Assembly (NCBI GenBank): GCA_965224085.1
Contig: CBDCYI010000009.1
Span: forward strand, 576,001-640,000
DNA from: Candidatus Marinacidobacterales bacterium
GTDB taxonomy: Bacteria > Acidobacteriota > Vicinamibacteria > Marinacidobacterales > SMYC01
Length of the DNA stretch: 64,000 nucleotides
Direction of reading: 5' to 3'
A program made the position numbers and the translations under genes. This document shows, in pieces, positions 454-55,474 of this stretch; the first letter of the stretch is position 1; every line of letters starts with the position of its first letter. The notes beneath the pieces were generated by a model that was not told where the DNA came from, searched no databases, and saw only the letters and a program-made list of their open reading frames with translations.

Positions 454-856
454 CTACGCGGCACGGCAGTAGTAGTTGAGAATGCCCCCAAGTCGCTCTC
501 GCGACACGATGGGGCCAGCGTCATTCGCGCTTGCCGGCAGAGGTGTGAGGAGCTCGTTGCCGAGACCTTGGTGGTTCCGTTCTGTGTGATAGTGCACTAC
601 GTATTCGGTTATCGCTGTCCGCAGGTGTCGCTCACTGAGAGGTACGAAGCGGTCGAGACACTCTCGACGTATGGAGAGAACGAATCTTTCCGCGTATGCG
701 TTCAGATTCGGACTATTAGCGGGAAGGCGGAGGGGCTTCACGCCTGAATCTCTCAACAGCCCACGTACTGCCTCGGTGAATAGCGGGTCCCGGTCGTGGA
801 TGAGGTATCGCTTGCCAAGGAGGAAACCATCCCACATGTCAGTGAGGTTTCTTGCC
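454..856 (-). pseudogene. Integrase-core (rve) transposase, C-terminal fragment
   Basis: [11 protein letters not shown]...[23 protein letters not shown]...[12 protein letters not shown]...RLGGILNYY; 5' part removed at the IS6-type IR at 857. Confidence 0.85.
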
Positions 857-972
857 GGTATTGTCAAGTTGAGGTCTCAAGCTCGAAGCGGGCCGCTAGA
901 TGATGGGGCTTGAGCACACAGCGTTGCCAACATCTTGGGGTCGGATCGGCCCTGAATGCCTCAACTTGACAG
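857..972. mobile_element. IS6-derived MITE (about 120 bp) whose right IR is split by IS110 (last 4 bp TACC at 2644-2647)
   Basis: Left IR GGTATTGTCAAGTTGAGG; right IR CCTCAACTTGACAG|TACC; matches the IS6 ends at 54587 and 3269-3284; no ORF inside. Confidence 0.75.
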
Positions 973-1034
973 CAATGGCATCGCCCGGGCGGGCGAAGGT
1001 AATCGGAGACTGACCCTTTGAGATCTGTGGGAGG

Positions 1035-1200
1035 AAGTAGACTCCGATCGAGTGCAGCCGGGAGTCAAGGCCGAAGGTACGATGGTGCTCAGTGCCCGTT
1101 TGACAGCAAGGTCTGGAGGGTTAGCGGGAGTATCCGTGGTGGCATGTCGCGAGGCATGACCCCGTTCGAAAGAATGTTTTGAATCGCCCCTCTCTCCTGG
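1035..1200 (+). ncRNA. Candidate bridge RNA of the IS110 element
   Basis: About 250-bp non-coding left end with a hairpin (GACTCC/GGAGTC) and two internal-loop modules containing GGTAC + TTTGACAG (target matches) and TCGAAAG (donor right-end match). Boundaries approximate. Confidence 0.6.
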
Positions 1201-1221
1201 TTGCGCCGAAAGGAGCGAGAA

Positions 1222-2610
1222 ATGGCACGTCGCGTCAGGACAAAAAGCAGTCGTCAAGCAAGACGGAAAAAATTGGAGCACGAGCTCGACACGGTAAATC
1301 TAGATGCTGCAGGGATTGATATTGGAGCGGAGTCAATCGTGGCGGCAGTCCCGAAGGGGCGCACTCCTGAGGGCGAACATGTCCGCACGTTTCAGAGCTT
1401 TGTATGCTCGCTGCGAGAGCTGGCCAATTGGCTGAAGGCGTGCGGCGTGTGCACGGTGGCGATGGAGTCGACCGGAGTTTATTGGATTCCACTGTACGAG
1501 TTGTTGGAAGACGAGGGATTTGAAGTCTATCTGGTCGATGCTCGCAAAGTGAAAAACGTATCTGGGCGCAAGTCAGACGTGTCGGATGCGGAGTGGCTGC
1601 AACAGCTGCATACATTCGGGCTACTCCCAAAAACCTTTCGGCCGGAATCGGCGATTTGCGAGCTAAGGGCATACACCCGCCAACGAAGCTCGCTGGTGGA
1701 GTCAGCGGCTCGCCACATTCAGCATATGCACAAAGCGCTCAACCAAATGGGGCTCCAGCTACAACACGTCCTGCGCGACGTGACCGGAGTCACCGGCCTT
1801 GCGATCATCCGAGCGATCTTGAGAGGAGAGCGAGATCCTCGTGACCTAGCAAAACTGAGGCATGAACGTTGCCACAACGATGAGGCCACGATCGCGAAAG
1901 CCTTAGAAGGTAACTATCGGAGCGAGCATGTTTTCGCTCTTCAACAGTCGGTGGAGTTGTACGATTTCTATCAAGAGAAAATGGAAGACTGTGACAAGCG
2001 GATCGAGAGATGCCTGTCCAAATTGGAGACCCGGCCTCAGGACGCTCGGCCTAAGCCGAAACCACGGACACGGCGAGCGCGTAGCGGCAACGGGCCGCGC
2101 TTTCCGCTCGCTGAGTCTCTATTGGGACTCACGGGGGTGGACCTAACCAGGGTTCCCGGCTTAGGTAGCTATGCCGTTCTGCAGCTCGTAGGAGAAACCG
2201 GTTGCGACATGAGCCCGTGGAAAAGTGACAAGCACTTCACCTCATGGCTAGCTCTCGCACCGAATAATAAGGAGTCCGCTGGTCGAATCTTTCGCCGGGC
2301 CACCCCAATGAGCTCCAGTCGTGCTGCAAAACTCTTTCGCCTCGCCGCGTGCGCTGTCCGCAATACCCAAACCGCGCTCGGCGCTTTCTATCGACGAATC
2401 CGATCGCGACGAGGTGCTCCAAAGGCCATCACAGCTACCGCCCGTAAAATAGCGACCATCTACTTCCGCATGCTTGCGACTGGAGAGGAGTTCATTGAGC
2501 TCGGTCAGGACGCCTATGAAAGGCAATACCAGCAACGCCTCCTGAGTAATCTCCGACGCAAAGCTACCCGACTCGGCTTCAGCCTCGTTCCCGATCAATC
2601 CATATCATGA
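1222..2610 (+). CDS. IS110-family DEDD transposase/recombinase
   Basis: AGIDIG, VAMESTGVYW and KSDVSDAEWL (DEDD) motifs; C-terminal ESAG motif; AGGAG SD before ATG 1222. Confidence 0.95.
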   Translation: MARRVRTKSSRQARRKKLEHELDTVNLDAAGIDIGAESIVAAVPKGRTPEGEHVRTFQSFVCSLRELANWLKACGVCTVAMESTGVYWIPLYELLEDEGFEVYLVDARKVKNVSGRKSDVSDAEWLQQLHTFGLLPKTFRPESAICELRAYTRQRSSLVESAARHIQHMHKALNQMGLQLQHVLRDVTGVTGLAIIRAILRGERDPRDLAKLRHERCHNDEATIAKALEGNYRSEHVFALQQSVELYDFYQEKMEDCDKRIERCLSKLETRPQDARPKPKPRTRRARSGNGPRFPLAESLLGLTGVDLTRVPGLGSYAVLQLVGETGCDMSPWKSDKHFTSWLALAPNNKESAGRIFRRATPMSSSRAAKLFRLAACAVRNTQTALGAFYRRIRSRRGAPKAITATARKIATIYFRMLATGEEFIELGQDAYERQYQQRLLSNLRRKATRLGFSLVPDQSIS

Positions 2611-2647
2611 AAAATGCCTTCGGCCGGGAGTGTCAGTCGAAAGTACC

Positions 2648-3284
2648 ATCACGGTTTCCTACGAAGCGATCCGACTTTGGTGCATCAAGTTCGGGCCGGA
2701 ATACGCTCGGCGACTGAAGCGTCGGCAGGGTCGTCTCGGTGACACGTGGCACCTAGACGAGGTCTTCATAAAGATACAAGGTGAACGCCAATACCTCTGG
2801 CGTGCGGTAGACCAAGATGGTGATGTAATTGATATCCTCGTCCAGCCTCGTCGTGATCGGAAAGCCGCGAAACGATTCTTCCGCAAGCTGTTGAAGGGGC
2901 AAGGCCGTCCGCCCTGGCAGCTGGTCACCGACAAACTGAGAAGCTACAGTGCCGCTCACCGCGAGGTCATGCCGTCCGTCGTCCACGACACTGACCAGTA
3001 CAGAAACAACCTAGCCGAAGTCTCGCACGAACCGACGCGACAACGGGAACGACAGATGCGGAAGTTTAAAACTCCTGGGCAGGCGCAACGATTCTTGACC
3101 GTGCACGGACTCGTGCAAAACCTCTTTCGCGTCGGACGGCATTTGTTGCAAGCGCATCATCATCGGGAGCTACGAGACCGCGCTTTCATCGTCTGGCAGG
3201 AGGTAACCTGTGCCGTCCGATGAGAGCAAAGGAAGTCAGCTCGACGCGATAGGTTCGCTCGCTCAACGTCAACTTGACAATATT
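2648..3284 (+). pseudogene. 5'-truncated IS6 transposase (to 3223) with its right IR
   Basis: Nearly identical to 54648-55352 from ITVSYEAIRLWC onward; WHLDEVF and VTDKLRSY motifs; IR TCAACTTGACAATA at 3269-3282. Confidence 0.9.
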
Positions 3285-3795
3285 CTTCCATGCAATATGA
3301 AAGGCGATGAACGTCTTGCCCGTGCCCGTCGCCAGCGTGAGCAGGATGCGATCTTTCTCGGCGGCGATTGCCTCCATCGCCCGTTCGATTGCCAGGTCCT
3401 GATAATAGCGTGCCTGGAAAAATCCTCCCCTGTCCTCAAAAGGGACAGTGGCAAAGCGGTCCCGCCAGGCGTTTGCTTCGGCGAAGGTCAGGTTCCACAG
3501 TTCTTTGGGGGAAGGAAATTGAAGGACTTCGCCCTCCGTCCCCTCCTTCATGTCGATGCCGTAGATGCCCTGGCCGTTGGTGGAGTAGGTATAGCGGATG
3601 GCGAGCTTCCCGGCGTAGCTCTTCGCCTGCCCGACCCCTTCGGTCAAAGGCTTGTCCCAAGCCTTGGCCTCCACCACTGCCAGTTTGTGGTTGCGATACA
3701 CCAGGACGTAGTCGGCTATGTCCGGCTTGGCCCGCTTCCCGTGGCCTTCGATTCGGCCCAGCGTGATGTGATACTCGCGCAGGATGCGGCTGCCT
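3285..3795 (-). pseudogene. hsdR: Type I restriction R subunit (EcoEI-like) N-terminal fragment
   Basis: REYHITLGRI...ADYVLVYRNHKLAVVEAK nuclease motif, RYYQ, LLTLATGTGKT Walker A; truncated by IS6. Confidence 0.85.
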
Positions 3796-5267: not shown

Positions 5268-5335
5268 CCCGTCCTGTGCCAAAACTCGGCCCTTTTGAAA
5301 TAGCCAATAAATCAGCAGCTTAGTGTCTGTGTTTG
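5268..5335. repeat. 68-bp terminal repeat of rve-integrase elements (copy 2)
   Basis: Near-identical to 223-290; lies upstream of the integrase at 5420. Confidence 0.75.
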
Positions 5336-54425: not shown

Positions 54426-54647
54426 TAGCCCGGGCCCGCGGGTGCTTCCGCTATTAAGTGTTGGGAGTATGGTGCTAAGGCTTTTGGTTACAACAAATTA
54501 CAGCCCAATTAGCGCTCGTTACCTTTGCTGCGCGCCAAATCGGGCGTAAGCGCATTTCTTGCAAGAGGATGCATGCCATCACCAACGGTATTGTCAAGTT
54601 GACGTTGAGCGAGCGAACCTATTGCGTCGAGCTGACTTCCTTTGCTC

Positions 54648-55352
54648 TCATCGGACGGCACAGGTTACCTCCTGCCAGACGATGAAAGCGCGGTCTCGTA
54701 GCTCCCGATGATGATGCGCTTGCAACAAATGCCGTCCGACGCGAAAGAGGTTTTGCACGAGTCCATGCACGGTCAAGAATCGTTGCGCCTGCCCAGGAGC
54801 TTTAAACTTCCGCATCTGTCGTTCCCGTTGTCGCGTCGGTTCGTGCGAGACTTCGGCTAGGTTGTTTCTGTACTGGTCAGTGTCGTGGACGACGGACGGC
54901 ATGACCTCGCGGTGAGCGGCACTGTAGCTTCTCAGTTTGTCGGTGACCAGCTGCCAGGGCGGACGGCCTTGCCCTTTCAACAGCTTGCGGAAGAATCGTT
55001 TGGCGGCTTTCTGATCACGGCGAGGCTGGACGAGGATATCAATCACATCACCATCTTGGTCTACCGCGCGCCAGAGGTATTGGCGTTCGCCTTGTATCTT
55101 TATGAAGACCTCGTCCAGGAGCCACGTGTCACCAAGGCGACCCTGCCGACGCTTCAGTCGCCGAGCGTATTCCGGCCCGAACTTGATGCACCAAAGTCGG
55201 ATCGCTTCGTAGGAAACCGTGATGCCTCGCTGAGCAAGCAGCTCTTCGACGTTTCGAAAGCTCACGCAGAATCGGTGGTAGAGCCAGACGGCGTGGCTGA
55301 TGATTTCCGGTGGAAATCGATAGCCGTGGTAGCTTGGCGCATCGGTCTTCAT
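54648..55352 (-). CDS. IS6-family transposase (234 aa)
   Basis: YRFPPEIISHAVWLY, LDEVF, LWRAVDQDG, VTDKL, NNLAEVSH motifs. Confidence 0.95.
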   Translation of the reverse strand: MKTDAPSYHGYRFPPEIISHAVWLYHRFCVSFRNVEELLAQRGITVSYEAIRLWCIKFGPEYARRLKRRQGRLGDTWLLDEVFIKIQGERQYLWRAVDQDGDVIDILVQPRRDQKAAKRFFRKLLKGQGRPPWQLVTDKLRSYSAAHREVMPSVVHDTDQYRNNLAEVSHEPTRQRERQMRKFKAPGQAQRFLTVHGLVQNLFRVGRHLLQAHHHRELRDRAFIVWQEVTCAVR

Positions 55353-55386
55353 TGGACCATTCTGTCAGTCACCAGCTCAATTTGAC

Positions 55387-55454
55387 AGCAATGGCACCGC
55401 CCGTGCGGGCGGAGGTCATCGGGGAGTGACCGAAATCGTTCGTTCACTCGAAAG
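55387..55454 (+). mobile_element. Miniature non-autonomous IS110 derivative in the IS6 IR
   Basis: AG cores at 55387-55388 and 55453-55454; first 43 bp are 37/43 identical to the IS110 left end (973-1015); last 11 bp are 10/11 identical to its right end. Confidence 0.8.
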
Positions 55455-55474
55455 TACCCTTCGCGGGAAGTGTG

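Follow-up and report, generated by a model that had tools for sequence, protein, structure and literature searches.

An IS110-family element at an AG core in IS6-type terminal inverted repeats of Candidatus Marinacidobacterales

How does one mobile element come to sit at a single position in the ends of another? The question is raised by a 64,000-nucleotide stretch of Candidatus Marinacidobacterales DNA (contig CBDCYI010000009.1, positions 576,001 to 640,000; hereafter the window), in which an insertion sequence of the IS110 family, at 973-2643, interrupts a terminal inverted repeat of the kind that bounds IS6-family transposons. An earlier note, made from the letters of the window, had proposed that this element targets IS6-type terminal repeats at an AG core. 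The analysis presented here supports that proposal, and we consider it highly probable that the element is a bridge/seek-RNA-guided IS110 element, naturally programmed for the IS6-type terminal repeat and active or recently active. Coordinates of all features are collected in Table 1.

The element and its predicted guide RNA

The boundaries of the element are exact. The 6.87-Mb genome to which the window belongs (G000) contains seven copies that are 100% identical across positions 1-1671, along with further truncated copies, and the flanks of the copies diverge directly outside ..TTGACAG on the left and TACC on the right. The earlier note had made its reading depend on constant boundaries, and the equivalents of 973 and 2643 are indeed unchanged in the other copies. 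The last two bases of the element (AG) repeat the two bases to its left and represent the core. Deletion of the element leaves TCAACTTGACAG+TACC, which pairs with 857-872 as its inverted counterpart except at one base (G vs A), as had been read before. Because the excised form is an unbroken repeat identical to empty AG sites, insertion is seamless, with no target duplication beyond the core. The site is thus a 16-bp IS6-type terminal inverted repeat (from the outside, GGTAYTGTCAARTTGA), which is interrupted 4 bp inside its tip.

The 462-aa product of the single gene contains PF01548 (DEDD_Tnp_IS110, 88.3 bits, residues 30-176) and PF02371 (Transposase_20, 34.7 bits, residues 308-390), and scores 259.4 bits against the NCBIfam model NF033542, 'IS110 family RNA-guided transposase' (cutoff 140). 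By its domains, its seamless insertion and its site and orientation specificity, 973-2643 is a member of the IS110 family, in agreement with the original assignment. Its non-coding ends measure 249 nt upstream of the gene and 33 nt downstream; by the end-length criterion given in PMC11208160, these lengths would place it in the IS110 group and not in the IS1111 group.

The upstream non-coding end is predicted to encode a bridge/seek RNA with two homologous internal loops. Only three stretches of 973-1221 match the site at length: TTGACAG at 1100-1106, GGTAC at 1076-1080 and TCGAAAG at 1166-1172. In loop 1, the left-target guide UUUGACAG has the sense of the left flank and core and would pair with the bottom strand. 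It matches all left flanks over 7-8 nt, 1100-1106 corresponding to flank plus core and the full 8 nt (1099-1106) being matched at CAATTTGACAG sites. The right-target guide reads the second core base and the outermost 4 bp of the repeat. Together the two target guides span TTTGAC-AG-TACC (~12 bp), wholly inside the 16-bp repeat, and both read the core G, the left guide through its last G (bottom strand) and the right guide through the C of GGUAC (top strand). In loop 2, the TCGAAAG stretch has the sense of the right end of the element itself. RNA libraries (2 runs, 1 study) gave contigs over 1039-1346 and 2047-2647, with starts at 1039 and 1058; the signal is weak, and such libraries can contain DNA.

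Relatives of the element were found in genomes (53) and metagenomes (80), all of them at no more than 64% protein identity. Alignment A1, which holds 14 rows (the window element and 13 relatives) over the RNA region, gave a consensus fold of 24 pairs, 11 of which show compensatory changes. Each loop comprises an outer stem, then variable sequence on the 5' side, an inner hairpin (..UGGUGC..GCCCG) and 8 variable nt that end in AG. This architecture was seen by comparative alignment and not revealed by the single-sequence fold of 973-1221 (z = -2.05). A search of 850-2700 against Rfam returned no family, the sole match being at chance level (E = 4.2).

The sequence at the left boundary, 110-145 nt upstream, agrees over at least 6 nt with the 8 nt after CCCG in loop 1 for the element itself and for 8 of the 13 relatives (9/14 rows). 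The final 7 nt of the variable stretch in loop 2 agree with the right end for the element and for 11 of the 13 relatives (12/14 rows), the sequence differing from one element to the next. The right guide, a 5-nt stretch two bases before UGGUG in loop 1, was compared with the right flank in 28 distinct relatives: C stands opposite the core G in 25 of the 28, and the other four bases form a mean of 1.89 vs 1.20 pairs, above all 2000 shuffles, with pairing at three or more of the four positions in 12 relatives when crude automatic boundaries are used. Read from these alignments, the three predicted guides were found to be present and to covary with flanks and ends across the relatives.

The specificity for IS6 appears to be confined to this lineage. 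The nearest relatives (L072 and L079, 62-64% identity) have different guides and other targets, and several more distant relatives target repeats resembling repetitive extragenic palindromes (REP), ..TCATCCTGAG^CG.. (^ marks the insertion point). The IS6 guide occurred in none of the 65 parsed relatives, and the IS6 specificity is thus best read as a lineage-specific reprogramming. As a separate observation, the relatives L027-L044 from Acidobacteriaceae metagenome-assembled genomes (MAGs) all lie in REP-like ..TGTCATCCTGAG^CG.. repeats, also with an AG core; two groups among them have a common target, differing element ends and matching donor guides.

In the mechanism that we propose, the upstream RNA would be made and bound by the recombinase, and its loop 1 guides would pair with both target strands and so specify TTTGAC-AG-TACC, while the UCGAAAG of the second loop would match the element's own right end as the donor. 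Strand exchange by the DEDD recombinase at the AG core would then give an insertion 4 bp from the tip, without duplication and in a single orientation. An AA allele would leave both target guides and the donor core with a one-base mismatch and hence be spared, since the core G belongs to both target guides and a match to the donor core would be required. The 66-bp derivative described below, with donor-recognition ends only, uses the same site.

Targeting might instead be directed by protein, the recombinase or an end-bound IS6 transposase recognising the repeat and the RNA matches being incidental. Such a reading would accord with the putative status of the RNA and of its binding, with the missing right-donor guide, and with the hairpin at 982-995, which could be a protein site; the hairpin is kept, with bases changed, in the 66-bp derivative and in relatives, and we speculate that it is involved in donor recognition. 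We nevertheless regard protein-directed targeting as very unlikely. The free guide positions would match by chance with probabilities of 2e-4 (left target), 4e-3 (right target) and 1e-3 (donor), the same positions covary with the flanks in relatives, and NCBIfam names the family RNA-guided. Furthermore, the genome-wide census shows that repeats of miniature inverted-repeat transposable elements (MITEs) and of remnants, without an adjacent IS6 gene, are occupied too.

Occupancy of AG and AA repeats

All 30 left junctions in the window's genome read TTGACAG, and the orientation is always the same. Intact left flanks all end in ..AAnTTGACAG, and right flanks all begin with TACC and then diverge. 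TACC follows all 27 complete copies, which have AG at both junctions, and likewise all 12 exact right ends. The 30 junctions are made up of 19 copies of a 66-bp derivative, 7 full copies (1671 bp), a rearranged one (1733 bp) and 3 whose right end could not be recognised. Copies in unrelated targets, which would have spoken against the earlier note, were looked for among these 30 junctions and among four inspected copies of a second genome (see below), and none was found.

The same genome holds 58 uninterrupted exact TTGACAnTACC sequences, with n being A in 45, G in 10, T in 2 and C in 1. Accordingly, 30 of 40 AG sites are occupied vs 0 of 45 AA sites (Fisher p = 1e-14; the copies are related and not independent events, and this and the following census p-values overstate the case). 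Occupied sites lie in the IS6 left repeat (18), in a second repeat family (4) and in other contexts (8). The IS6 left repeat is otherwise empty in 6 AG and 3 AA copies, and the IS6 right repeat is AA and empty in all 29 cases. Outside IS6 proper, the contrast is the same, with 12 of 16 AG sites vs 0 of 13 AA sites occupied (p = 6e-5). The T/C difference six bases before the core is irrelevant, as CAAT, CAAC and CAAG sites are all occupied. Within the window, the 11-mer TCAACTTGACA (at most one mismatch) occurs 5 times against 0.70 expected, a number reached by 2 of 100 shuffles; given the genome-wide census, chance is untenable as the source of the repeat interruptions.

The rule extends to a second genome. 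One of 55 genomes from the order, G004 (loci L152, L163, L172 and L176), belongs to a different family and carries six copies that are 100% identical over 1671 bp. The four inspected all lie at ..AAnTTGACAG, followed by TACC three times and by TACA once, in contexts that differ from those of the window's genome. In this genome, 8 AG sites are occupied and 23 empty (8/31), vs 0 of 16 AA sites occupied (p = 0.038). The occupied-AG, empty-AA pattern that the earlier note had read from a handful of ends thus holds in both genomes. G004 also carries the same IS6 at 98% identity, and its copies are, by coordinates, AA at both ends and empty. The identical IS110 copies and the 98% IS6 identity imply a recent horizontal exchange of the mobilome. 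In addition, a MAG record (L046) contains a fragment with 100% protein identity, its right end followed by TACC.

Could the AG/AA pattern be made by the insertion itself, the donor core overwriting an AA target, so that it reflects no choice of site? As such overwriting would predict, AA predominates among the empty sites of two repeat families and the occupied ones read AG. However, insertion into AA by exchange of either one strand or both should leave one junction reading AA, and 0 of the 27 complete copies show this; the G therefore belongs to the chosen sites. Empty AG sites exist as well (10 in the window's genome and 23 in G004), and the IS6 left repeat is natively AG, as seen in its 6 empty AG copies, the 3 AA copies being a separate sub-lineage. 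Hence we find overwriting hardly credible.

Host repeats, the 66-bp derivative and a second element

The two interrupted repeats in the window belong to different hosts. The repeat at 961-972 is of IS6 type, as the earlier note had stated, but it is the end of a 120-bp MITE-like element, which hosts the window's full-length IS110 copy, and the adjacent IS6 copy is 5'-truncated. BLAST with the rejoined 120-bp element detected 4 more copies (89-96% identity) and 2 right-end fragments in the window's genome. The truncated IS6 copy at 2647-3282 corresponds to IS6 positions 169-804 of 806 (622/636 identical), its first 168 bp being gone. The second interruption, near 55387, is real, but its occupant is the 66-bp derivative and not the full element. 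It lies in the left repeat of the reference IS6 copy (TCAATTTGACAG at 55377-55388 plus TACC at 55455-55458), which has the AG core. The right repeat of that copy (54587-54602, ..GACAATACC) has an AA core and is empty. Likewise, the other two ends previously listed as empty, 857 and 3269, are confirmed as AA; that at 3269-3284 has an altered tip, which reads ..ATATT and not ..ATACC.

The reference copy fits the IS6 family in its IS6/IS240-type DDE transposase, its length of ~0.8 kb and its short repeats beginning with GG. An 8-bp target-site duplication was looked for at the 24 full IS6 copies of the genome; none has identical flanking 8-mers, the best showing 2 mismatches. IS6-family copies often lose their duplications through intramolecular events, and 54587-55458 was filed as IS6 because of the protein evidence. 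The lack of direct repeats at the 24 copies suggests frequent intramolecular events or inter-copy recombination, and it makes the duplication test uninformative as to whether the occupants were carried along by IS6. In the haplotypes of the 24 copies, over 74 variable columns, the three with an AA left repeat form a separate sub-lineage, while copies with no insert, a 66-bp insert or a 1671-bp insert are intermixed and some haplotypes are identical. Occupancy therefore changes faster than IS6 diverges.

All 19 copies of the 66-bp derivative in the window's genome lie between TTGACAG and TACC, sharing site and orientation with the full element, whose ends theirs resemble. They keep the first ~43 nt of the element with several substitutions, and the last 7 nt and core of their right end match the donor guide. 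They are found in at least 3 kinds of host repeat, and sequence variants are common to different host kinds. The derivative is presumably mobilised in trans; according to PMC11187229, a mini-insertion sequence (mini-IS) with ends of 29 bp and 16 bp moves in this way. A double-stranded circle of 66 bp is unlikely. Two preprints from 2025-26 report single-stranded circles, copy-out and direct top-strand transfer for transposition, any of which would permit the movement of such a short derivative.

The remaining alternative, a single chance entry into an IS6 repeat that was then multiplied by IS6 or MITE copying, has in its favour that 13 of the 19 miniatures lie in the left repeat of one IS6 type and that IS6 copies are numerous and near-identical, but it is the most improbable of the three, because the occupant is found in at least 4 unrelated contexts with only the repeat in common (and in further contexts in G004), identical IS6 haplotypes differ in occupancy (none, 66 bp or 1671 bp), the same miniature variants occur in different host elements, and the guide RNA matches the site.

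Several points weigh against RNA-guided insertion into the repeat, to which we nevertheless hold. A right-donor guide (the complement of G plus the start of the left end) was sought in the target-loop register of the element and its relatives and was not found. The order of the guides, with the top-strand complement 5' and the bottom-strand segment 3', is the reverse of that in IS621 and ISEc21. Both points make the analogy to the solved mechanism less direct. Under the crude automatic boundaries, the right guide pairs at only 0-1 of four positions in 13 of the 28 relatives. The empty AG sites counted above show that a matching site is not always used, and the relatedness of the copies has been mentioned. 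Of the public sequencing runs, 20 rows contain the stretch; circle or excision junctions were not seen in the contigs of the 4 runs examined for joints, though contigs drop rare forms. Finally, a scan for promoters and terminators was empty, with no sigma-70-like promoter. As a separate candidate, the TTGACA of the repeat was considered as a -35 box for the element and rejected, there being no -10-like hexamer at 16-18 bp.

A second IS110-family element, of 1482 bp, lies outside the window (e.g. L071, C4:169300-171400, in G000) and occupies repeats of this type at another point, TTGTCA-AG^TTGA; its hosts are IS6 right repeats and the MITE. The transposase it encodes also contains PF01548 and PF02371 and is 33% identical to that of the window element. 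For 8 of the 11 left ends detected, a right end lies at a distance of 1482 or 1498 bp. In the upstream region, CCCG directly precedes a 10-nt sense match, TTGTCAAGTT, and UUAAC stands in the right-guide register. Four repeats bear both the 1482-bp element and the 66-bp derivative.

The surroundings contain traces of further mobile elements. Window 454-867 (minus strand) is an rve-type transposase fragment (integrase core, PF13683) cut off by the MITE end at 857, and the window start (1-250) looks like a further copy. A ~40-nt motif (..GTGCCAAAACTCGGCCCTTTTGAAATAGGCCATAAAT..) occurs beside transposase fragments at 225-285, near 5300 and in L046, and is probably the end of another insertion sequence. 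At 3189-3701 (minus strand) lies an N-terminal piece of a ResIII-type restriction/helicase subunit (PF04851, 39.2 bits). This frame runs into the IS6 right repeat at 3269-3284, and the gene thus appears to be interrupted by IS6.

Table 1. Features of the window and of the target site
Feature	Positions	Strand	Basis or remark
IS110-family insertion sequence, 1671 bp	973..2643	+	without terminal inverted repeats; 7 identical copies, flank divergence
Transposase/recombinase gene, 462 aa	1222..2610	+	ATG at 1222 after GGAG
Inner 12 bp of interrupted IS6-type repeat (target left half and core AG)	961..972	+	
Outer 4 bp TACC of interrupted repeat (target right half)	2644..2647	+	
AG-core target sequence			TTTGACAGTACC
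AA variant of the target sequence			TTTGACAATACC
Predicted bridge/seek RNA region, two homologous internal loops	1050..1205	+	alignment A1, consensus fold
Predicted right-target guide GGUAC, 5' side of loop 1	1076..1080	+	complement of top-strand G+TACC
Predicted left-target guide UUUGACAG, 3' side of loop 1	1099..1106	+	directly after invariant CCCG
Predicted left-donor guide UUCGAAAG, 3' side of loop 2	1165..1172	+	last 7 nt equal own right end and core (2637-2643)
Left-end hairpin CGCCCG GG CGGGCG	982..995	+	read from sequence
66-bp non-autonomous derivative	55389..55454	+	~43 bp left-end-like, right end ..CTCGAAAG
MITE-like element, 120 bp	body 857..972	.	IS6-type inverted repeats 857-872 and 961-972 + 2644-2647
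5'-truncated IS6-family copy (IS6 positions 169-806)	2647..3284	+	abuts MITE end; PF13610 130.8 bits for 2645-3220
Complete IS6-family element, reference	54587..55458	-	806 bp without insert; 16-bp repeats GGTAYTGTCAARTTGA
IS6 transposase, 234 aa	54648-55352 (within 54587..55458)	-	PF13610 126 bits; NF033587 209.7 bits, cutoff 125

Relation to known systems and biological meaning

IS4321 and IS5075, of the IS1111 group, reportedly insert inside the 38-bp terminal repeats of Tn21-family transposons. They resemble the present element in being DEDD-transposase insertion sequences that take one position and orientation inside the terminal repeat of another element. They differ in the host repeat (38-bp Tn21-family there, 16-bp IS6-type here) and in the non-coding region, which lies downstream there and upstream here.

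According to PMC11187229, ISEc21 of the IS110 group encodes a seekRNA in its upstream region and has its natural target in IS3-family transposase genes. It thus has in common with the present element the upstream non-coding region and a target inside other insertion sequences, and its mini-IS is moved in trans, as is presumed here for the 66-bp derivative. In contrast, ISEc21 hits codons within the transposase genes and not a terminal repeat, and its top-strand match lies 3' of the bottom-strand match, opposite to the order found here. For IS621, PMC11208160 describes bridge RNA loops in which 8-9 nt on one side pair with the bottom strand and 4-7 nt on the other with the top strand, core included. 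A target loop and a donor loop, the reading of both strands, a 2-nt core and seamless integration are common to IS621 and the predicted system. Unlike IS621, the window element has an AG core on the transposase strand (CT on the other strand), carries the long guide on the 3' side, and has no identified right-donor guide. Compared with the CHARACTERISED systems (IS621, ISEc21), the guide order is reversed, though the RNA would be encoded in the left end; it equals the order reported for IS1111-type seekRNAs in PMC11187229. The IS1111 group has the reverse end arrangement of the IS110 group, plus long subterminal inverted repeats. ISPpu9 and ISPpu10 are likewise IS110-family elements with a multi-copy repeat as landing site, but theirs are REP or intergenic repeats of the host and not the ends of another mobile element.

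Full-text literature searches found no IS110-family element reported to target IS6-family repeats, although the supplementary target tables of PMC11208160 and PMC11187229 may list one. Other mobile elements are already on record as targets for this family (IS4321/IS5075, ISEc21), and the principle is unchanged. The value of the present system lies in a well-documented case and a source of testable variants. It is a clean natural case of bridge/seek-RNA reprogramming onto the end of another transposon, and unusual in its allele-specific near-saturation, its natural minimal donor, its two unrelated elements on one repeat and its reversed guide order. It is also a natural specificity experiment, in which a one-base core difference separates the occupied from the spared sites. 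The 66-bp derivative, as a natural minimal donor, marks sequences sufficient for donor recognition, and tool builders gain a second loop layout, with the long guide on the 3' side and an AG core.

A wider reading, tentative and on balance doubtful, would join these results. The 16-bp IS6-type repeat would be contested by the two IS110 elements (33% protein identity), with guides at different positions (GGTA^CTGTCA and TTGTCA-AG^TTGA), and by the 66-bp derivative, which together interrupt two thirds of IS6 left ends while IS6 lineages with one core substitution (AA) escape. As the earlier note had suggested, the element might immobilise IS6 copies or travel along with them. It may then act as a hyperparasite: it would disable IS6 reversibly, pass between bacterial families with the shared IS6 mobilome and cause the alleles of transposon ends to turn over. 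Its bridge RNA, encoded in the left end, would have a guide order known to date from IS1111-type elements alone. Should interrupted IS6 ends be inactive, the element would limit the activity of IS6, one parasite restraining another within the genome.

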